Shown here piece after piece: positions 2,882 to 61,975 of a stretch of 64,000 nt of DNA. Both the position numbers and the translations under genes were made by a program. The notes below the pieces were generated by a model. It did no database searches and had not been told where the DNA came from. It worked only from the letters and a program-made list of their open reading frames with translations. Position 1 is the stretch's first letter, and each line of letters begins with the position of its first letter. Source of the stretch: Desulfobacterales bacterium (lineage in GTDB: Bacteria; Desulfobacterota; Desulfobulbia; Desulfobulbales; BM004); the NCBI GenBank assembly GCA_021647905.1, contig JAKITW010000005.1, forward strand, positions 181-64,180, written 5' to 3'.

Positions 2882-3547
2882 ATGGTGGTCAGTGTAGCTG
2901 ATATCGCGCCTGCCGGCGCTTCGAGTAACGGAACCATTGCCAGTGGTTCGATTCTGGGCAAGGATCAGTTCCTGCAACTCCTGGTGGCCCAGTTACAGAA
3001 CCAGGACCCGCTAAAACCCCTTGACCCGACGGAGTTTACCGCGCAGTTGGCCCAGTTCAGTTCCCTTGAGCAGTTGTTCAGCGCCAACGAGAGTCTCTCC
3101 CGGATGGTCCAGGCCAGCCGGGATAATCAGGAACTGGGCCGGTTGTCGGCCGTGGGGCTGATCGGCCGCCGGGTCGAGGTCGCTGGGGCGGATTTTCATT
3201 ACCGCGACACCCCGGTCGAGTTCGGGTATACCCTTGACGCCCCGGCGGCAGCGGTCAGGGCGCGGATCCTGGACTCCAGCGGCCAGGTGGTGGCGGTCCT
3301 GCCGCAGGACCAGACCGGCCCGGGCCGCCATTATTCCTCCTGGGACGGAGACGGACTGGCCGGGCGCTCCCTGCCGCCCGGGGATTACCGGCTGCAGGTG
3401 GAGCGGGTCGACAGGGAATCGGCCACCGCTGTTCCAACCCGGATCCGGGGGGTGGTGGCTGGTGTGGATCTGGACAGCCAGGGCAGTATCCTGGCGACCA
3501 GTGCCGGCGAGTTCGGCCTGGCGGAGGTCGTAAGCGTGACGGATTGA
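2882..3547 (+). CDS. flgD: flagellar hook capping/assembly protein FlgD
   Basis: 221 aa with the N-terminal FlgD signature LGKDQFLQLLVAQLQNQDPLKPLDPTEFTAQLAQFSSLEQ. A GGAGG RBS is upstream, and the gene lies between fliK and flgE. Confidence 0.9.
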   Translation: MVVSVADIAPAGASSNGTIASGSILGKDQFLQLLVAQLQNQDPLKPLDPTEFTAQLAQFSSLEQLFSANESLSRMVQASRDNQELGRLSAVGLIGRRVEVAGADFHYRDTPVEFGYTLDAPAAAVRARILDSSGQVVAVLPQDQTGPGRHYSSWDGDGLAGRSLPPGDYRLQVERVDRESATAVPTRIRGVVAGVDLDSQGSILATSAGEFGLAEVVSVTD

Positions 3548-3549
3548 TG

Positions 3550-3707
3550 GTAAGTGATCACAGGCACCCCATCTTCGCACGATCGCTCCTGCCCGCATAG
3601 GCGGACTATAGCGGCCGGTCACGCTTGCGCAAATCTGCGGCACCTGTGGTCACTTACAGGTTTGGGGGTAATAATATCACAGAGTTATACACCCAGTGAT
3701 CAGTTAC
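3550..3707 (+). repeat. family-A structured intergenic element, diverged copy (A1)
   Basis: Same architecture as the copies at 17779, 44839 and 61531. The 5' arm GTAAGTGATCACAGG (3550-3564) is followed by the conserved block GCACCCCATCTTCGC. The complementary 3' arm CCTGTGGTCACTTAC is at 3643-3657, and a second arm copy CCCAGTGATCAGTTAC is at 3692-3707. Confidence 0.6.
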
Positions 3708-3798
3708 GATTGATGAAATGGTGCCGGTACCACTTGTAACCGGTTGGTTTCGCACAGTGGCATTTGAAAAAGTTGAGCTTTTTACGAGTTCATCAAAA

Positions 3799-3902
3799 TT
3801 GTCGGTCTCGCAACAACCCGCTCGACGGAGGTGATTCGTCTTGTAACTTGTTGATTTTATTGGGTGGCATTTGAAGCCTTTCGGGTTGTTACGAGTTCAT
3901 CA
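3799..3902 (+). repeat. family-B 104-bp leader repeat, copy 1 (upstream of flgE)
   Basis: 103/104 identical to 5373-5476 and ends 20 nt before the flgE ATG. It contains a 9-bp long-range complement, AACAACCCG (3812-3820) with CGGGTTGTT (3882-3890). Confidence 0.9.
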
Positions 3903-3921
3903 AAATTAACGGAGGACAATC

Positions 3922-5196
3922 ATGGGCATTCTATCTTCTCTCTACAGTGGTGTCAGCGGCCTTGCCATTAATGCCAACGCCATGAGCGTGATCGGCAACA
4001 ACATCGCCAACAACAACACCATCGGCTTCAAGACCGGGCGGATGCTCTTTTCCGACCTGCTCTCCAGTTCGGTGTCCGGTTCCGGCGGCACCAGCCAGGT
4101 GGGCCGCGGGGTCGGCTTTTCCTGCATTGACAACATCTTCAGCCAGGGAACCCTGGAAAATACCGAGCAGAATACTGACCTGGCCATTGAGGGCGATGGC
4201 TTCTTCATGGTCAAGGAACCGATCACCGGCGGTACTCTTTATACCCGGGCCGGGGCCTTTCGCTTTAACGCCGACGGCTATCTGACCAACCCGGAAGGGC
4301 TGCACGTCCAGGGCTATGCGCTGAACAGCCTCGGCAATATCTCCGGCGCCTTGACCGATATCCAGGTGGACACCATGTCCCTGAGCGCGCCCAAGGAGAC
4401 CGAAAACATCGCGCTGGCGACTAATCTCGATTCCGGTGCGCCCTACCTGGGGCCGTTCGATGTCCTGGATCCGAGCAATACCAGCAACTACGCCAACTCC
4501 CTCAATATCTACGATTCCCTGGGCAATGCGCACCTGCTGCAGACCTATTTCACCAAAATGGACCCGGCGACCAATCCCCTGGAATGGGAGTGGAACGCGA
4601 CCGTGGATGGCGCCGAACTGGGCGGGGCCGCCGGCCCGGTGGTGGTGGGCAGCGGTACGTTGCTTTTTGATATCAACGGTGAGATGACCGCGGCCAATCC
4701 CCCGACCCAGTCGACCCTGGCGGGCGTGCTGACCTGGGACAACAATTCCGATCAGACCCAGCAACTCGATCTGACGTTCAAAACCACCCAGTACTCCAGC
4801 GCCTCGGTGGTGATTTCCCAGTCCCAGGACGGCTACACCACCGGCAGCATCGCCCAGTTGTCCATTGACAACCAGGGCAATGTCCTGGGCAACTACTCAA
4901 ACGGCCAGCCCCGCAAGCTATTTCAGCTCGCCCTGGCCAGGTTCAGCAACCCGGCCGGCCTGGTAAAGCAGGGGAACAACATGTTCGCCGACGGCACCGA
5001 GTCGGGTAACGCCATTGTCGGCACCGTTGGTTCCGGCATCGGCAAGATCTTTACCAATGCCCTTGAACAGTCCAACGTGGACATTGCCCAGGAGTTCATC
5101 AACATGATCACGGTCCAACGCGGTTTTCAGGCCAGTTCGAAGATCATCACCACCACCGACGAGATGCTCAACGACCTGATCAATCTCAAGCGTTAG
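3922..5196 (+). CDS. flgE: flagellar hook protein FlgE
   Basis: 424 aa. The N-terminus SGLAINANAMSVIGNNIANNNTIGFK and C-terminus SNVDIAQEFINMITVQRGFQASSKIITTTDEMLNDLINLKR are canonical rod/hook family termini. GGAGGA RBS present. Confidence 0.95.
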   Translation: MGILSSLYSGVSGLAINANAMSVIGNNIANNNTIGFKTGRMLFSDLLSSSVSGSGGTSQVGRGVGFSCIDNIFSQGTLENTEQNTDLAIEGDGFFMVKEPITGGTLYTRAGAFRFNADGYLTNPEGLHVQGYALNSLGNISGALTDIQVDTMSLSAPKETENIALATNLDSGAPYLGPFDVLDPSNTSNYANSLNIYDSLGNAHLLQTYFTKMDPATNPLEWEWNATVDGAELGGAAGPVVVGSGTLLFDINGEMTAANPPTQSTLAGVLTWDNNSDQTQQLDLTFKTTQYSSASVVISQSQDGYTTGSIAQLSIDNQGNVLGNYSNGQPRKLFQLALARFSNPAGLVKQGNNMFADGTESGNAIVGTVGSGIGKIFTNALEQSNVDIAQEFINMITVQRGFQASSKIITTTDEMLNDLINLKR

Positions 5197-5372: not shown

Positions 5373-5476
5373 TTGTCGGTCTCGCAACAACCCGCTCGAC
5401 GGACGTGATTCGTCTTGTAACTTGTTGATTTTATTGGGTGGCATTTGAAGCCTTTCGGGTTGTTACGAGTTCATCA
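5373..5476 (+). repeat. family-B 104-bp leader repeat, copy 2 (upstream of motA)
   Basis: 103/104 identical to 3799-3902. It lies between the sigma-54 promoter and the motA start, ending 20 nt before the ATG. Confidence 0.9.
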
Positions 5477-5495
5477 CTTTTAAGGTAAGGCATTT

Positions 5496-6269
5496 ATGGA
5501 TCTGTCCACCCTCCTGGGAATCGTTGCATCATTTACCTTGATGATCCTGGCCATTCTGTCGGGCGGCTCGATTTTTCTGTTTTTCAATGTCCCGTCGGTG
5601 ATCATCGTGGTCGGGGCCACGATCGGTTCGACCTTTATCCATTATCCGTTCCGGGATATCTTCGGGGCCGCCGCAGTGTGCAAGAAGGCATTTTTTCATC
5701 GTGAGCCGACCCTGCGGGAAACGGTTGCGCAACTGGTCCGTTTTGCCGGCAAGGCCCGCAAGGAAGGGATACTCGCCCTGCAGGAGGTGGCCGGCGAGAT
5801 CCAGGACCCCTTTTTCCTCAAGTCGCTGCAGATGGCCATCGACGGCCTGGAGGCCGAAGACCTCCGGCAGATGCTGGAAAGGGAGATTGAGTATATCCAG
5901 GGACGGCATGAGGATGGGGCGGATATCTTTGTCGCCATGGGAACCTATGCCCCGGCAATGGGGATGATCGGCACCCTGATCGGCCTGGTGCAGATGCTGC
6001 AGACCATGAACGATCCATCGACCATTGGCCCGGCCATGGCCGTGGCCCTGTTGACCACCTTTTACGGGGCGATCATCGCCAACGTCATCTGCATGCCGAT
6101 TGCCGGCAAGCTGCGCAACCGGTCCCAGAAGGAGATTCTGCGCAAGACCCTGATCGTCGAGGGCATGCGCTGTGTGCTGGTGGGCGAGAATCCGCGGCTG
6201 ATGGAACAGCGGCTCCATGTTTTTCTCGCCCCCAGGCTGCGGGAGAGCAGCTTCGGCAAAAAAGGATAG
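5496..6269 (+). CDS. motA: flagellar stator protein MotA/PomA
   Basis: 257 aa with 4 TM segments and the MotA/ExbB-type channel region AMGMIGTLIGLVQML...GPAMAVALLTTFYGAIIAN. Followed by motB. Confidence 0.9.
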   Translation: MDLSTLLGIVASFTLMILAILSGGSIFLFFNVPSVIIVVGATIGSTFIHYPFRDIFGAAAVCKKAFFHREPTLRETVAQLVRFAGKARKEGILALQEVAGEIQDPFFLKSLQMAIDGLEAEDLRQMLEREIEYIQGRHEDGADIFVAMGTYAPAMGMIGTLIGLVQMLQTMNDPSTIGPAMAVALLTTFYGAIIANVICMPIAGKLRNRSQKEILRKTLIVEGMRCVLVGENPRLMEQRLHVFLAPRLRESSFGKKG

Positions 6270-17325: not shown

Positions 17326-17772
17326 ATGATGGCAAGGGACATGATTTTTCTGCTGGTGCTGTTCAGCGCCGGCACACTGGCCGTACTCAGTTTCTGGCTC
17401 GATGGCCGGCTGCGCAAGGCCCGTTGCCGGCAACAGGAGGCAGAGGCGGCCCGGGTCGAGTATCAGCAGCAACTGTTGCGCCTGGAGCGGCAGCTGGCCG
17501 CCGGCCTGGCGCCGGCCACCGTGGCGGGTCCGGCAGACCGGTCCCGGCGGGAAGGTGCGTTTGCCGGGCCGCTTGGGCAGGCCGGGCTGCGATTACGCCT
17601 GCGGCAGGGGCCGGTGCGCACCACCGGGGTGGTCGAGCGGTATCGGCTGATGGCGGCAATGGCCCGGCAAGGGCTGGCGGCCCAGGATATCAGCGCCGTG
17701 CTGCGGTTCTCTGACAGCGAAACAGAACAGTTGCTGAAACTATCCCGGGTCGGCCGGCGGGCCGCGGCTTAA
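17326..17772 (+). CDS. hypothetical membrane-anchored protein, possibly DUF2802-like (flagellar-cluster associated)
   Basis: 148 aa with an N-terminal TM segment and a coiled coil. The C-terminal HTH-like segment reads ERYRLMAAMARQGLAAQDISAVLRFSDSETEQLLKL. Only its position after fliA links it to motility. Confidence 0.45.
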   Translation: MMARDMIFLLVLFSAGTLAVLSFWLDGRLRKARCRQQEAEAARVEYQQQLLRLERQLAAGLAPATVAGPADRSRREGAFAGPLGQAGLRLRLRQGPVRTTGVVERYRLMAAMARQGLAAQDISAVLRFSDSETEQLLKLSRVGRRAAA

Positions 17773-17778
17773 GGAAAG

Positions 17779-17931
17779 GTACAAGTTCACCAGCACCTCA
17801 TCTTCGCCCGTTTGGGCCTCCTCACATCCGCCAAGGATAGATTCGGAGCCCCAAACGAACGAATCCAAGGCACTGGTGAACTCGTACGGGCTGAGTATCC
17901 CCCGAGGTTGTCGCCCTTGGTGAACTGTTAC
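17779..17931 (+). repeat. family-A structured intergenic element (A2)
   Basis: The 5' arm GTACAAGTTCACCAG (17779-17793) is followed by the block GCACCTCATCTTCGC. The 3' arm CTGGTGAACTCGTAC is at 17873-17887 and the second arm CCTTGGTGAACTGTTAC at 17915-17931. Only 4 mismatches to 61531-61683. Confidence 0.85.
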
Positions 17932-18021
17932 AAGGGAAGAGGATTTTTTGCCCGGGGCGGGCTAAAGAATCCAGCCCCGGCGGTCGAAGAGAGTTTCGAC
18001 CCCATATGGAGGAGAGTATAG

Positions 18022-18750
18022 ATGAGTTCAGGCATGTACAGTGCGGTTTCCGGCGCCGCGACCCGGCTGCGGATGATGGACACGATCAGCGATAACCTGA
18101 GTAACGGCAAGACCCCCGGATTCAAGAAAGGCGGGTTTTTTTTCGCCTCGATGCTCGACCGGTCGGTGGACCTGCGGCAGGCGCGGGGCATCGATTATAC
18201 GCAGATCAAGGAGGGATTCTCCGATTTTACCCAGGGTGAATTGATCCGGACCGGCGTTCCCCTGCAGCTGGCCATCGAAGGGGAGGGGTTCTTCAAGGTG
18301 CGGGATGGGAACGGGCAGATATTTTTCACCCGCCAGGGAATGCTGCGCCGCGATCCTTCCGGCCATCTGTTGACCCAGCACGGGATGAAGCTGATCGGCG
18401 AGAATGGGCGGCCCCTGTCGTTCCCTGACAACGGGGTGACCATCGACGAACAGGGGATGGCGCAACTGTCCGGCGGCCAGAAGATGCGGGTGCCGGTCTA
18501 CTCGGTCCCGGATCTTGCCATGCTCGAACGGGTGGGCGGCGGGTTGTTCCGGGCGGCCCGGCCCGAGGATGCTGTTATGCTGGAGAGACCGCGCGTCTTT
18601 CAGGGCTACATCGAGGATTCCAATGTCAACATCATGCGGGAGATGGGCCGGATGATGGAGTCCCTGCGGATTTTCGAGGCCTGCCAGAAGATGATGAAGA
18701 ACTACCGTGAACTCGACCGCAAGGTTATTGAACTGGGAGTTATCGGTTGA
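18022..18750 (+). CDS. flgF: flagellar basal-body rod protein FlgF
   Basis: 242 aa with rod-family N- and C-termini (DTISDNLSNGKTPGFKK...YIEDSNVNIMREMGRMMESLRIFEACQKMM). Directly upstream of flgG. Confidence 0.85.
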   Translation: MSSGMYSAVSGAATRLRMMDTISDNLSNGKTPGFKKGGFFFASMLDRSVDLRQARGIDYTQIKEGFSDFTQGELIRTGVPLQLAIEGEGFFKVRDGNGQIFFTRQGMLRRDPSGHLLTQHGMKLIGENGRPLSFPDNGVTIDEQGMAQLSGGQKMRVPVYSVPDLAMLERVGGGLFRAARPEDAVMLERPRVFQGYIEDSNVNIMREMGRMMESLRIFEACQKMMKNYRELDRKVIELGVIG

Positions 18751-22574: not shown

Positions 22575-22652
22575 TGTAAGGTTTCGGTAAACCCCGTACG
22601 TTTGAGGTTGGACCGGGAAAGGGGTTTTCTTATAGCGAACGGTGTAGCGGAC
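22575..22652 (+). repeat. family-D 78-bp repeat, copy 1 (3' of flgJ)
   Basis: Reverse complement of 35119-35196 with 3 mismatches. Contains AAACCCC (22589-22595) and GGGGTTT (22621-22627), the latter followed by TCTTAT. Confidence 0.85.
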
Positions 22653-25981: not shown

Positions 25982-26106
25982 CTCAGGGCCAGGTCAGTGA
26001 CTGTCGGCTTTGCCGATAATTTATATACCTCTGAATTACGGGTAATCGAATGACGAACAATCGAATGACGAACAATCGAGTGACGAATAAAGGGCTGTAG
26101 CGGACC
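25982..26106 (+). repeat. family-C intergenic repeat, copy 1, containing 3 tandem 15-bp units
   Basis: Aligns with 54339-54433 (CTCAGGGCC.GGTCAGTG...CGAACAATCGAGTGACGAATAAAGGGCTGTA.CGG.CC). Tandem units ATCGAATGACGAACA / ATCGAATGACGAACA / ATCGAGTGACGAATA lie at 26045-26089. Confidence 0.8.
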
Positions 26107-35118: not shown

Positions 35119-35196
35119 GTCCGCTACGCCGTTCGGTATAAGAAAACCCCTTTCCCGGTCCAACCTCAAATGTACGGGGTTTACCGAAACCTTACA
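35119..35196 (-). repeat. family-D 78-bp repeat, copy 2 (3' of the HD-GYP gene)
   Basis: Reverse complement of 22575-22652 (75/78 identical). Like copy 1, it lies in sense orientation shortly after a stop codon (35234, minus strand). Confidence 0.85.
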
Positions 35197-44765: not shown

Positions 44766-44838
44766 ACCATTCCTTGCAGATCGGTCTGATTTTGAAGTAA
44801 GTTGCCAGAAGGATCGCTCCCTGGATTATGGAATTGTG

Positions 44839-44990
44839 GTAAGCGTTCACCAGCACCTCATCTTCGCCCATTCCGGCCTGCTCGAATAGCACCAGTATGC
44901 TTCGCAGTCCCGAATGAACGAATCTAAGCCACTGGTAAACGCTTACGGGCATGAGATTACCGTAAATCCATACCCCCGGTGAACGGTTAC
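44839..44990 (+). repeat. family-A structured intergenic element (A3, intermediate divergence)
   Basis: The 5' arm GTAAGCGTTCACCAG (44839-44853) is followed by GCACCTCATCTTCGC. The 3' arm CTGGTAAACGCTTAC is at 44932-44946 and the second arm CCCGGTGAACGGTTAC at 44975-44990. Confidence 0.8.
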
Positions 44991-45033
44991 GAATTGTGAT
45001 TACCGTTGCAAAGCCTAACAGACAAGAGAAAAA

Positions 45034-45990
45034 ATGACAATATCCGAGCCACGTTACCGCCAACTGTATGCCAGCGGGGAATTAGCCGCAAGAAGGGATG
45101 CGGCCCTTGAACAGCTTAAGGAGTGCCGCCTCTGTCCCCGTGCCTGCGGCAGGAACCGGGTCGCCGATGAGGCCGGCTTCTGTTGCACCGGTTCCCGGGC
45201 CAAGGTTGCCAGCTATTCTCCTCACTTTGGCGAGGAGGGCCCCCTGGTCGGAACGGGCGGTTCGGGAACCATCTTTTTTAGCAACTGCAACCTGGGCTGC
45301 GTCTTCTGTCAGAACTACGAGATATCCCACCTCGGTGAAGGGGTGGAGGTTGACAGCGGCCAACTGGCCGCGATCATGCTCAGCCTGGAGAAACAGGGCT
45401 GCCATAATATCAACTTCGTTACCCCCAGCCACCTGGTGCCCCAGATCCTGGCCAGCCTGGTTATTGCCGCTGAGCACGGCCTGTCGCTGCCCCTGGTTTA
45501 CAACTCCGGCGGCTATGACTCGGTGGCTACCCTGCGGCTTCTGGACGGGGTCATTGATATCTACATGCCGGATTTCAAGTTCTGGGATCCAGCCACAGGC
45601 ATGCGTTACACCAAGGCACCTGATTATCCGGACCGGGCCCGGGCCGCGATCAGGGAGATGCACCGCCAGGTGGGCGATCTGGTTATCGATGACCGGGGCC
45701 TGGCAGTGCAGGGGCTTCTGGTCAGGCACCTGGTCATGCCCGGCGGGCTTGACCAGACCGGGGCGATCCTTGGTTTCCTGGCCCGGGACATTTCAAAAAA
45801 CACCTATGTCAATGTGATGGACCAGTACCGTCCCTGCGGCCGGGCCGATGAGTTCCCGCCCCTGGACCGGCGCACCAGCCGACAGGAGTATGAACAGGCC
45901 CTGGCCCTGGCCCGGGAGGCGGGCCTCATTCGGCTGGACCGCAGGGAGTGGTCCCGGATGCTGTACCAGCTGGCATCTGTTGATGGATGA
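45034..45990 (+). CDS. radical SAM protein (PflX/activase-like)
   Basis: 318 aa with the CNLGCVFCQN (CxxxCxxC) motif and an upstream Cys-rich segment CRLCPRAC. Confidence 0.8.
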   Translation: MTISEPRYRQLYASGELAARRDAALEQLKECRLCPRACGRNRVADEAGFCCTGSRAKVASYSPHFGEEGPLVGTGGSGTIFFSNCNLGCVFCQNYEISHLGEGVEVDSGQLAAIMLSLEKQGCHNINFVTPSHLVPQILASLVIAAEHGLSLPLVYNSGGYDSVATLRLLDGVIDIYMPDFKFWDPATGMRYTKAPDYPDRARAAIREMHRQVGDLVIDDRGLAVQGLLVRHLVMPGGLDQTGAILGFLARDISKNTYVNVMDQYRPCGRADEFPPLDRRTSRQEYEQALALAREAGLIRLDRREWSRMLYQLASVDG

Positions 45991-54338: not shown

Positions 54339-54433
54339 CTCAGGGCCGGGTCAGTGCTGGTCGGCTCTGCTGGTAGTTGATATAGTTCTGAATGGCGAAC
54401 AATCGAGTGACGAATAAAGGGCTGTAACGGGCC
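54339..54433 (+). repeat. family-C intergenic repeat, copy 2
   Basis: Aligns with 25982-26106. It is followed at 54461-54493 by inverted copies of the 15-bp unit (TTGTTCGTAACTCGAATGTTCGATTGTTTGTCA). Confidence 0.8.
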
Positions 54434-60005: not shown

Positions 60006-61523
60006 GTGGTCCGGATGAAGAAACGGGCGGTCATTGATCTGGAATCGCTGAAGCGGTTGCAGGAGACCAGGGAAAACCTGCAGCGGGTCGAGTCCCTTCC
60101 GTACAGTGAAGAGCTGGTGTCGGTGATGGACCCCGAGGTGTATACCTGCTCCGAGGACCGGGCCGTGAAGGCGGTGCTCAAGGAGATGGCCGGCCGCAAT
60201 GTCTCCAGCGTCATTGTGGTTGACCATGCCGGCCTGCCCCGCGGGATTCTCACCGAGCGGGACGTGATGCAGCGGGTGGTGGCCGATGACGATGTCGATC
60301 CCGCGACCACCCCGGTCTCTGCGGTGATGACCCCGGAGCCGGTGACCCTGCGGCCCGGTAACACCATCTACCGGGCCCTGTCGGTCCTCACCGCCCGGCG
60401 GATCAAGCATCTGCCCCTGGTTGAGGGGGGCAAGGTCGTGGGGATCGTCACCCTGCGCCAGCTCCTCAAGTTGCGCTACCCCGAGCCCATGGTCATGATC
60501 GAGGCGATCCGGGCGGCGCAAGGCCCGGAGGCCCTCAAGGGCTTACGCAACCAGCTTGACCGGATGGTGGACGATCGCCTTCACTCGGGCCGCCGGGCCA
60601 GTGATATCGTGCTGATGATCTCGATGATCAACCGCGACATCCATCGCCGCGTCCTGGAGTTGGTCCTTGAGCGGTACGGCGACCCGCCGGCCCGGTTCTG
60701 TCTCTACGTCACCGGCAGTCACGGCCGCCTGGAAAATCTGCTCGGTCCGGACCAGGACCATGGCATGGTCATTGCCGACACCCCTGACAACCATCAGTAT
60801 GACCAGTACTATGTTGATCTGAGCGAGGCCTTTTCCAGGGATCTTGCCATTGCCGGTTTCCCGCTCTGCCCGGGCTATGTGATGGCGATGAATCCCCTCT
60901 GGCGCAAGAGTCTGACCGAGTGGAAGCAGCAGATTCGCTACTGGATAGAGCGGCAGGTCCGCCAACTGGGGCGGTTTGCCACCGTGCTTTTTGATGCAGC
61001 CCCGCTGGCCGGGGATTTCGCCCTGTTCGAGCAGGTAAGGGATTTTGCCTTTGGCGAGCTGCAAAAACATTACGAGGTCCTGCGGGTCATGCTGGAGGAG
61101 GCGGGCAGCCACCGGGTGCCGCTGGGATTGCTCGGGGGGTTTATTACTGAAAAACGGGGCCGGCACCGGGGCGAGATCAACATCAAACGGAGCGGACTGC
61201 TCTTTGTGGTGGAGGCAATGCGGATGCTGGCCCTGCGCCACAACATTTGCGAGACCTCCACCCTGAAGCGGCTGGCCCGGCTGGTGGACGCCGGCCAGAT
61301 CCATGCTGATGACGCTGAATATTTCGAGTCCGCCTATCATGTGCTTCTCCATCTCACCCTGTCCACCCAGATCGACAAGTTGCGGGACGGCCTGCCCCTG
61401 GACTGTTTTATTGATCCGAAACTGATCTCCCGGCGTGACCGGGAGATTCTCAAGGACGCCTTCAAGGCGATCGGTTCCCTGCAGGAACTGGTGGCCACCG
61501 AGTTCGGGGAACTGGTGCTGTAG
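60006..61523 (+). CDS. CBS-pair / DUF294 putative nucleotidyltransferase
   Basis: 505 aa with two CBS motifs and an NTase-like core (YVTGSHGRLENLLGPDQDHGMV). The C-terminal helical region looks like a DUF294_C substrate-binding domain. Start at GTG 60006 or ATG 60015. Confidence 0.8.
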   Translation: MVRMKKRAVIDLESLKRLQETRENLQRVESLPYSEELVSVMDPEVYTCSEDRAVKAVLKEMAGRNVSSVIVVDHAGLPRGILTERDVMQRVVADDDVDPATTPVSAVMTPEPVTLRPGNTIYRALSVLTARRIKHLPLVEGGKVVGIVTLRQLLKLRYPEPMVMIEAIRAAQGPEALKGLRNQLDRMVDDRLHSGRRASDIVLMISMINRDIHRRVLELVLERYGDPPARFCLYVTGSHGRLENLLGPDQDHGMVIADTPDNHQYDQYYVDLSEAFSRDLAIAGFPLCPGYVMAMNPLWRKSLTEWKQQIRYWIERQVRQLGRFATVLFDAAPLAGDFALFEQVRDFAFGELQKHYEVLRVMLEEAGSHRVPLGLLGGFITEKRGRHRGEINIKRSGLLFVVEAMRMLALRHNICETSTLKRLARLVDAGQIHADDAEYFESAYHVLLHLTLSTQIDKLRDGLPLDCFIDPKLISRRDREILKDAFKAIGSLQELVATEFGELVL

Positions 61524-61530
61524 ACTTTTT

Positions 61531-61683
61531 GTACAAGTTCACCAGCACCTCATCTTCGCCCGTTTTGGCCTCCTCACATCCGCCAAGGATAGATTCGGAG
61601 CCCCAAGCGAACGAATCTAAGGCACTGGTGAACTCGTACGGGCTGAGTATCCCCCGCGGTTGTCGCCCTTGGTGAACTGTTAC
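61531..61683 (+). repeat. family-A structured intergenic element (A4)
   Basis: 149/153 identical to 17779-17931. Starts 8 nt after the stop of the DUF294 gene. Confidence 0.85.
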
Positions 61684-61975
61684 GACTTTTTTTGTCTGCG
61701 GCCCGGGTAAGATTACGCTTGACACCGCAAATTGCGGAAGGGTGTTATCCTGTCTCGCCCGGTTAGGAAGGCCGGCACGTTCGAGGTTTTGCGGAACCGG
61801 CTGGTGGCGATATTCTGCGAATACGTTAAGTTTTCCGTGCAGCATCCTTGACAGGGCAGACAACTTCGGCTATAAAACTTCTTTTTTGTTGCGGTGGGCC
61901 AAGGGCAAAATCGTAGCGGAACCATACAGGATAACGCAACATGCTTTTCATCAACATATCTGGAGGAACACGGTA

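Follow-up and report, generated by a model that had tools for sequence, protein, structure and literature searches.

The 158-bp element at positions 3550 to 3707 of the window (the whole 64,000-nt stretch of Desulfobacterales DNA that was analyzed) is very probably a non-autonomous MITE with IS66-family ends, of the DUF6444 + DDE_Tnp_IS66 kind and ISBst12-like. It lies between the flagellar genes flgD and flgE, and had been read in the preliminary description as a selected RNA or single-stranded DNA structure. A stand-alone RNA locus between these two genes is not supported, and gives way to a mobile MITE on three grounds: 8-bp target site duplications (TSDs), an empty site in a relative, and parents in the IS66 family. 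An imperfect hairpin that spans most of the element is nevertheless maintained by compensatory change, and folds better on the strand opposite to the one that was read.

Organization of the element

The element carries three related arms, two of them at its ends and one internal. The features of the element and its immediate surroundings are as follows.

2882-3547, + strand: flgD (Pfam FlgD, FlgD_ig, FLgD_tudor)
3542-3549, + strand: left TSD copy GATTGATG, which holds the flgD stop codon TGA (3545-3547)
3550-3707, + strand: MITE copy of a diverged subfamily, 158 bp (nhmmer E = 4e-25), with terminal inverted repeats (TIRs) and an 8/8 TSD
3550-3564, + strand: arm 1 GTAAGTGATCACAGG, the left TIR and the 5' half of the hairpin closing stem
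3550-3657, − strand: long imperfect hairpin of ~108 nt (roughly 110), from folding of the whole element
3564-3578, + strand: conserved subterminal block GCACCCCATCTTCGC, mismatched (C·A) on the + strand and G·U-paired on the − strand
3643-3657, + strand: arm 2 CCTGTGGTCACTTAC, an inverted internal copy of arm 1
3658-3691, + strand: variable spacer from arm 2 to the right end
3692-3707, + strand: arm 3 CCCAGTGATCAGTTAC, the right TIR (reverse complement GTAACTGATCACTGGG)
3708-3715, + strand: right TSD copy GATTGATG
3922-5196, + strand: flgE (Pfam FlgE_D2, Flg_bbr_C, Flg_bb_rod)

Members of the family are 152-158 bp long, without conserved coding capacity. The sole ORF across the element (3554-3739, 61 aa) is not conserved, as there are indels between copies. 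The arm positions given in the preliminary description are accurate, apart from the position that it implied for arm 2, which is ~1 nt off the true 3643-3657. Arms 1 and 2 of the 3550 copy form 15 pairs out of 15, one of them a T·G wobble, just as it stated.

Target site duplications and an empty site

The 8 nt directly to the left of arm 1 are repeated directly to the right of arm 3. Duplications were scored in 70 copies with a recognizable right end from Desulfobulbaceae-type genomes, and are perfect (8/8) in 35 of them and 7/8 in a further 11. In a shifted control, where the right flanks were moved by 3-4 nt, there were no perfect duplications in 280. Since the duplications flank arms 1 and 3, the mobile unit spans arm 1 to arm 3, and both of these arms are TIRs. 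The TIRs are ~16 bp long, with the consensus GTAA-N-[C/A/T]-GTTCACCRG, and arm 1 has 0-4 mismatches over 14 nt to the reverse complement of arm 3 in the 70 copies.

The empty site is found in L127, where FlgD is 76% identical to that of the window. Here the flgD-flgE site is intact, reading GTGACGGATTAATGAAATGG, that is GTGACGGATTAATG-AAATGG, with a single GATTAATG followed by AAATGG. At the same site the window has GTGACGGATTGATG-[158-bp element + GATTGATG]-AAATGG. Thus, insertion took place exactly at the stop codon of flgD, the TGA of which is retained in the left duplicate. An exact search for the FlgD protein of the window had no match. In L126, which has the closest FlgD (83% identity), the flgD-flgE spacer is just 48 nt long and the element is absent.

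Copies in the window

A profile built from related copies was searched over the window and found exactly four copies, every one on the + strand. These are the four copies (3550, 17779, 44839 and 61531) of the preliminary description. The three copies besides 3550 are listed below.

17779-17931, + strand: MITE copy of the GTACAAG subfamily (E = 1.5e-38); TSD AAGGAAAG (17771-17778) / AAGGGAAG (17932-17939), 7/8
44839-44990, + strand: MITE copy of the GTAAGCG subfamily (E = 8.7e-44); TSD GAATTGTG (44831-44838 / 44991-44998), 8/8
61531-61683, + strand: MITE copy, 97% identical to the 17779 copy (E = 4.6e-38); TSD GACTTTTT (61523-61530 / 61684-61691), 8/8

Three subfamilies are present in the window, with the 3550 and 44839 copies each differing in subfamily from the 17779/61531 pair. 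The 44839 copy had been presented as a third state of the arms, and does belong to a different subfamily, GTAAGCG. The 97% identity of the 17779 and 61531 copies indicates recent activity. Arm 1 was said to differ at about half of its positions between the 3550 and 17779 copies; the difference is in fact at 6 of 15 positions (4, 5, 6, 8, 13 and 14), or 40%. The conserved block was correctly described as nearly invariant, the other three copies being identical bar one C/T position, but it is unpaired only on the + strand, and is G·U-paired on the − strand.

The neighboring genes of the four copies are unrelated to each other. In addition to the flgD/flgE insertion, the 17779 copy lies between an ORF at 17326-17772 and a flgF/G-like rod gene at 18022, the 44839 copy is upstream of a radical-SAM gene at 45034, and the 61531 copy has rpsT downstream and a TSD that overlaps the stop codon of a DUF294/CBS gene. 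Three of the four copies are located directly after stop codons of + strand genes. The probable cause is that A+T-rich targets are preferred, the genome being rich in G+C.

Distribution in related genomes

A 21-nt pattern, made up of the end of arm 1 and the block, has at least 120 matches in species-representative genomes. Among the matches listed, nearly all are from Desulfobulbaceae, Desulfobia or other Thermodesulfobacteriota MAGs, with ~52 in MAG JANTGB01 and ~21 in MAG JAGHCC01. Many of the listed matches are at contig ends, a location that is typical of an assembly-breaking repeat. Five listed matches in unrelated phyla were rejected as chance matches within coding DNA. The MITE family defined here by its boundaries, consensus and 8-bp duplication is thus one that fragments Desulfobulbaceae MAG assemblies. 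The closest copies to those of the window are found in 'Bacterium BMS3Bbin14'. Two copies in this bacterium (L079:2882-3195) are in direct tandem, with a shared T-rich 10-nt junction between them.

A tiny recurrent insert, CAG|GTAAGCG-x(1-10)-AGACTCC|GA, was also observed, with a length of 15-25 nt and 86 occurrences in ~0.8 Mb of fetched DNA. It starts with the IS66-type terminus GTAAGCG, and many MITE copies carry it in one half of the hairpin or in both. Its other locations include the DruA-like ORF of one IS copy, and it also forms head-to-tail arrays. Example loci, all of them outside the window, are L002:6303; L004:2370 and 2424; L015:6760 and 6812; L135:~1309; L009:6476-6550; L014:~134; and L063:~5881.

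Probable IS66-family parentage

Inverted repeats in the IS66 family begin with GTAAGCG, and 8-bp direct repeats are made upon insertion (PMC11946415; PMC12888890). ISDge4, a member of the ISBst12 group, has the TIR GTAACTGCTCAGCA and an 8-bp direct repeat (PMC12898284), and this TIR is close to the terminus of the 3550 subfamily. The MITE and the IS66 family (DUF6444 + DDE_Tnp_IS66, ISBst12 group, e.g. ISDge4) are therefore alike in having TIRs that begin with GTAAGCG or GTAAC and TSDs of 8 bp.

Remnants of IS66-like elements carry parts of the MITE sequence. An IS66-like transposase is represented in L121 by a C-terminal remnant, and arm 3 follows it ~110 bp further on, as ...CCCGATGAACGGTTAC. 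L057 has the first 45 nt of the MITE directly next to a remnant of an L121-type transposase with an internal deletion. L057 was considered as a full-length parent and rejected, as it has only this 45 nt of left end joined to a deleted transposase remnant. It is a rearranged fragment.

A first protein search with the L057 transposase remnant returned two fragments only, and the parent family was reached by an exhaustive search of representatives plus a metagenome scan. The exhaustive search with the remnant found full-length 476-aa proteins with DDE_Tnp_IS66 (PF03050, E = 2.3e-39) and DUF6444 domains, in 1.6-kb elements with a single ORF (L123-L125; IRL GTAACCGTTCACCGGGTG..., IRR ...CACCCGGTGAACGGTTAC). 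Closer relatives, 69-89% identical to the C-terminal remnant, were found by the metagenome scan in ~2.49-kb elements (L132, L136, L137 and L140). The IRL/IRR of these elements are GTAACCGTTCACCRGG, which the termini of L123-L125 match, and they encode a 490-aa IS66-type transposase (DDE_Tnp_IS66, E = 2.8e-38). Two of the four, L132 (TAAAAAAG) and L140 (TAGTTACG), have a perfect 8-bp TSD, and the other two are without matching duplications.

The 2.49-kb elements additionally carry a 292-aa ORF upstream of the transposase that matches Pfam DruA, a Druantia protein (PF14236, E = 4.5e-35). This ORF is at L136:181-1059 and in the same place in L132, L137 and L140.

Full-length elements in related metagenomes have the same first 13-16 nt as the MITE (GTAACCGTTCACC...). 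Sequence shared between the MITE and the full-length IS is limited to the ~16-bp termini and ~30 nt of the right end; in the main subfamilies, the region equivalent to 3658-3691 resembles subterminal sequence from the right end of the parent IS. When the interior of the MITE (conserved block, arm 2 and loop) was aligned locally with that of the full-length IS, the result was noise only. Similarly, the conserved left and right blocks had no matches in the full-length IS relatives, by similarity or complementarity, with up to 6 mismatches allowed. The possibility that the element is an antisense regulator of the transposase was dropped, as there is no complementarity to the blocks in these relatives.

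Transposase genes are absent from the window and from the copy-bearing MAG contigs. As there is no DDE_Tnp_IS66 transposase in the element or the window, the element is a derivative and not an IS. A transposase supplied in trans would bind both ends and mobilize it. The differences in arms 1 and 3 among the three window subfamilies may reflect the various IS66-type ends from which they descend or to which they are matched. One such end is the GTAACTGCTCA-type terminus, which resembles that of ISDge4. Unlike an IS66-family IS, the window element is of a family of only 152-158 bp, encodes nothing, would depend on mobilization in trans, and has an interior that is absent from the full-length relatives. 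Its parentage links a MITE to IS66-family elements, for which the transposition mechanism is poorly understood.

Arms 1 and 3 versus arms 1 and 2

Tabulation of the three arms in 69 distinct copies reveals two distinct signals: arms 1 and 3 are related by end identity, and arms 1 and 2 by pairing. The first signal is seen at position 6 of the terminus, where both ends have the same base in 57 copies (C/C in 36, A/A in 18 and T/T in 3). Positions 8 and 14 change alike at both ends in the 3550 subfamily, in which position 13 is also off the consensus at both ends (A left, T right). At positions 4-5, the left and right ends vary freely with respect to each other, whereas arms 1 and 2 covary, with at least nine compensated states. 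In almost every copy, arm 2 retains GTAA..GTT[C/T]ACCAG.

Arms 1 and 3 would be expected to change in parallel as inverted repeats that are recognized by a single transposase, and base pairing is not needed to explain this. The preliminary description had reported that arm 3 changes in parallel with the other arms, and had spoken of compensatory changes in all three. The parallel change is present at positions 6, 8 and 13-14, but not at positions 4-5, where arms 1 and 2 covary, and it is what is expected of TIRs from different transposon subfamilies, not of a third pairing partner. Arms that serve as binding sites for a recombinase or transposase had been named there as an observation that would count against an RNA structure. 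Judging from their sequence, arms 1 and 3 appear to be such sites, namely TIRs of the IS66 type.

Covariation in the hairpin

RNAalifold analysis of 33 diverse copies predicts one 39-pair hairpin, running from arm 1 to arm 2. Of its pairs, 16/39 are changed on both sides, compared with 7.7 ± 1.6 in shuffles, and 88 cells are changed on both sides, compared with 24 ± 4. The proportion of hairpin cells that are paired is 96.3% in the 33 copies, and 38-48% in slid controls. None of 500 shuffles reaches any of the observed covariation measures. The inner stem, which is outside the transposase-type motifs, covaries as well (pairs 87/134, 90/130, 92/128, 93/127 and 97/123). Complementarity of arm 1 with arm 2, and of the two sides of the inner stem, is maintained by compensatory change.

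The correlation of substitutions in arms 1 and 2, which had been proposed from the window copies, is thus seen in a structure-aware alignment of 33 copies. Of the further proposal, that the covarying stems indicate a selected single-stranded structure, only the hairpin of arms 1 and 2 is left, with the fold on the strand opposite to the one that was read; the proposal does not stand for arm 3.

In two copies, L004:2335-2476 and L044:3593-3734, the two halves of the hairpin are perfectly complementary by Watson-Crick pairing, with no G·U pairs. The flanks of L004 are palindromic too. These copies may represent real palindromization or a fold-back artifact of assembly.

Strand asymmetry of the fold

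The fold of the whole 3550 copy is more stable on the − strand (-72.6 kcal/mol, z = -5.9) than on the + strand (-57.4 kcal/mol, z = -2.58), for which 6 of 200 dinucleotide shuffles fold at least as well. The − folds of all four window copies, and the + folds of the 17779 and 44839 copies, have z scores of -4.4 to -8.75 against dinucleotide shuffles. The + and − strand energies are -62.6 and -84.5 kcal/mol for the 17779 copy, and -52.7 and -81.4 kcal/mol for the 44839 copy. Among 69 distinct copies, the − strand is the more stable in 65 (means of -70.8 kcal/mol for − and -55.8 kcal/mol for +). The preference for the − strand is also seen with DNA parameters.

The greater stability of the hairpin on the − strand is due to conserved G·U or G·T wobbles. 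In the + fold, the conserved block is in an internal loop, whereas in the − fold G·U pairs join it to the facing arm. On the − strand, G·U is the majority state of six alignment columns and A·C of none, and 96.0% of cells are paired on the − strand versus 81.1% on the + strand. Among the polymorphic columns, G·U variants are seen in 14 and A·C variants in 14, with 42 G·U cells versus 20 A·C cells. The six fixed G·U pairs are shared by descent, so that the evidence for selection of the − strand form, although strong in thermodynamic terms, comes from few independent events.

This dependence of the fold on the strand is indicative of a single-stranded form (RNA or ssDNA), and from the predicted structures the folded − strand is likely to be the form under selection. 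Sequence constraint on the C-rich left block, combined with drift of the right half by transitions, could give rise to most of the bias with no selection on the fold. The folded − strand may be a transcript made by host read-through in that orientation, or alternatively ssDNA that is exposed during replication or transposition. The hairpin would most likely have a role that benefits the element itself, for example in stability or mobilization, and not in the regulation of flagellar genes.

It is possible, if somewhat doubtful, that the hairpin is purely a DNA-level feature. Arm 2 would then be either one more site for transposase binding, the third, or what is left of the right end of an older MITE of 110 bp. 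Occasional fold-back or template switching would copy one half of the hairpin from the other and thereby preserve their complementarity, and the strand asymmetry would be an accident of base composition, with no RNA involved. The retention of a transposase-type consensus by arm 2 in nearly all copies fits such a scenario, as do the equal numbers of polymorphic G·U and A·C columns, and the promoter, terminator and orientation results given below. The perfect right-half complements in L004 and L044 suggest that palindromization of DNA may occur, although these may be assembly artifacts, the flanks of L004 being palindromic. However, six columns are fixed as G·U on the − strand with none in the opposite state, more cells are paired on the − strand than on the + strand (96.0% vs 81.1%), and covariation extends to the inner stem, beyond the transposase-type motifs. 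Additionally, short forms of 110 bp, extending from arm 1 to arm 2 with TSDs of their own, were looked for among the copies and none was seen.

The three-arm layout and strand-biased hairpin of the MITE provide a handle on whether a folded single strand is used in IS66-type transposition or the control thereof. A more far-reaching possibility, which is speculative and rather unlikely, is that the MITE is a vehicle for a strand-specific structured RNA, with the ~110-nt − strand hairpin and its invariant 15-nt block as the selected product. Conserved G·U pairs, which become mismatches on the + strand, would hold this hairpin together. Transposition would in that case scatter a functional RNA module through Desulfobulbales genomes, for example as an RNase III substrate, a transcript stabilizer or a regulator of the cognate transposase.

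Search for a dedicated transcript

Rfam has no matches in the whole window at gathering scores, and none at E ≤ 1 in the two copies searched at this level. No sigma-70-like promoters on the − strand, and no intrinsic terminators, were found in or around the 3550, 17779 and 44839 copies. Promoter-like matches on the + strand are at chance level; the sole one within any of these three copies is a 9-of-12 match (3647-3675), which is near the shuffle expectation. A TAnnCT-like motif in the spacer was considered as a promoter element, and failed the promoter scan. The orientation of copies relative to flanking genes is unbiased (11 co-directional and 15 anti-directional, by a crude longest-ORF heuristic). 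A dedicated transcript, as envisaged in the preliminary description, is thus left with no promoter, terminator, Rfam family or orientation preference.

These results bear on whether the main identity of the element is that of a structured RNA (an sRNA, or a cis-regulator of the flagellar operon) in which three arms pair around a single-stranded functional block. The strong covariation of the hairpin and the near invariance of the 15-nt block are compatible with such an RNA, as is the location of three of the four window copies right after + strand stop codons; the 3550 and 17779 copies are between co-directional + strand genes, and hence would be co-transcribed with them. However, the TSDs, empty site and IS66-type termini show arrival by transposition, the copies adjoin unrelated genes in both orientations, and the flgD-flgE spacer of the closest relative lacks it altogether. 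On the strand that folds better, the block is in paired form, and arm 3, unlike arms 1 and 2, does not covary at positions 4-5. Rfam has no match to two copies even at E ≤ 1, and the three copies scanned have no promoter-like site on the − strand and no terminator-like site. As the primary identity of the element, a structured RNA is thus largely refuted, and must be considered very unlikely.

The specific suggestion of a flagellar regulatory RNA does not survive the analysis. The MITE reading explains a repeat family in the flagellar cluster as mobile DNA, and so averts its annotation as a flagellar riboregulator.

Relationship to known elements

MITEs with hairpin potential include Correia/NEMIS in Neisseria, ERIC/IRU in enterobacteria and RUP in pneumococcus. 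The window element resembles such bacterial MITEs in its short, non-coding sequence with TIRs and TSDs, its tens of copies per genome, its intergenic location, often inside operons, and its potential to form a long hairpin with compensatory changes between copies. MITEPsy1 is a further MITE of this kind (PMC3189936). The window element differs from hairpin MITEs in the partners that make up the hairpin, namely the left terminus and an internal third copy instead of the two termini, with a ~45-nt tail left over that carries the right terminus. It also differs in being strongly strand-biased through G·U pairs, and in having IS66-type ends. A literature search retrieved no report of an IS66-derived MITE or of a Desulfobulbaceae MITE. 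MITEs are known elements, among which the 3550-3707 family has probably not been described before; it is unusual in its closing stem, formed by the left terminus and an internal copy, and in its strand-biased fold.

Strand-asymmetric hairpin repeats are also typical of REP/REPIN sequences, which are mobilized by a RAYT (Y1) transposase, and of integron attC sites. Like the window element, REP/BIME/REPIN sequences are abundant intergenic hairpin repeats that probably act in single-stranded form, but they are not known to have a TSD, are mobilized by a Y1/RAYT enzyme and have much shorter palindromes. The window element has an 8-bp TSD and terminal repeats of the DDE (IS66) type, and REPINs and attC sites are not known to make such target duplications. 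Furthermore, no RAYT or integron integrase was identified with Pfam among flgD, flgE and six ORFs beside the other copies, and no copy is adjoined by a cassette array. The probability that the element belongs to either of these classes is negligible. REP and attC identities, which are refuted by the TSDs and termini, were accordingly rejected, as was a tRNA identity.

Other repeats in the window

A second repeat family is found at 22575-22652 (+ strand) and 35119-35196 (− strand), in inverted orientation and with 96% identity over 78 nt (GTAAGGTTTCGGTAAACCCC...GTAGCGGAC). It was considered as a possible tRNA, and this was rejected. A further repeat, at 26063-26106 and 54390-54433, likewise has the motif CTGTAGCGGAC of this family at its end. 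Just upstream of flgD, a 580-aa ORF (1114-2856) contains three 84-nt (28-codon) repeats in tandem, at 1422-1676.

A block of ~73 nt (...GTGGCATTTGAA...TTACGAGTTCATCAA...) is repeated at 3733-3805, 3840-3912 and 5414-5486. Two tandem copies are upstream of flgE, and one is upstream of a gene at 5496, which is motA-like by synteny with L126. One such block upstream of flgE is kept in the relatives L126 and L127. The ~73-nt block is probably a shared promoter or leader of flagellar genes.
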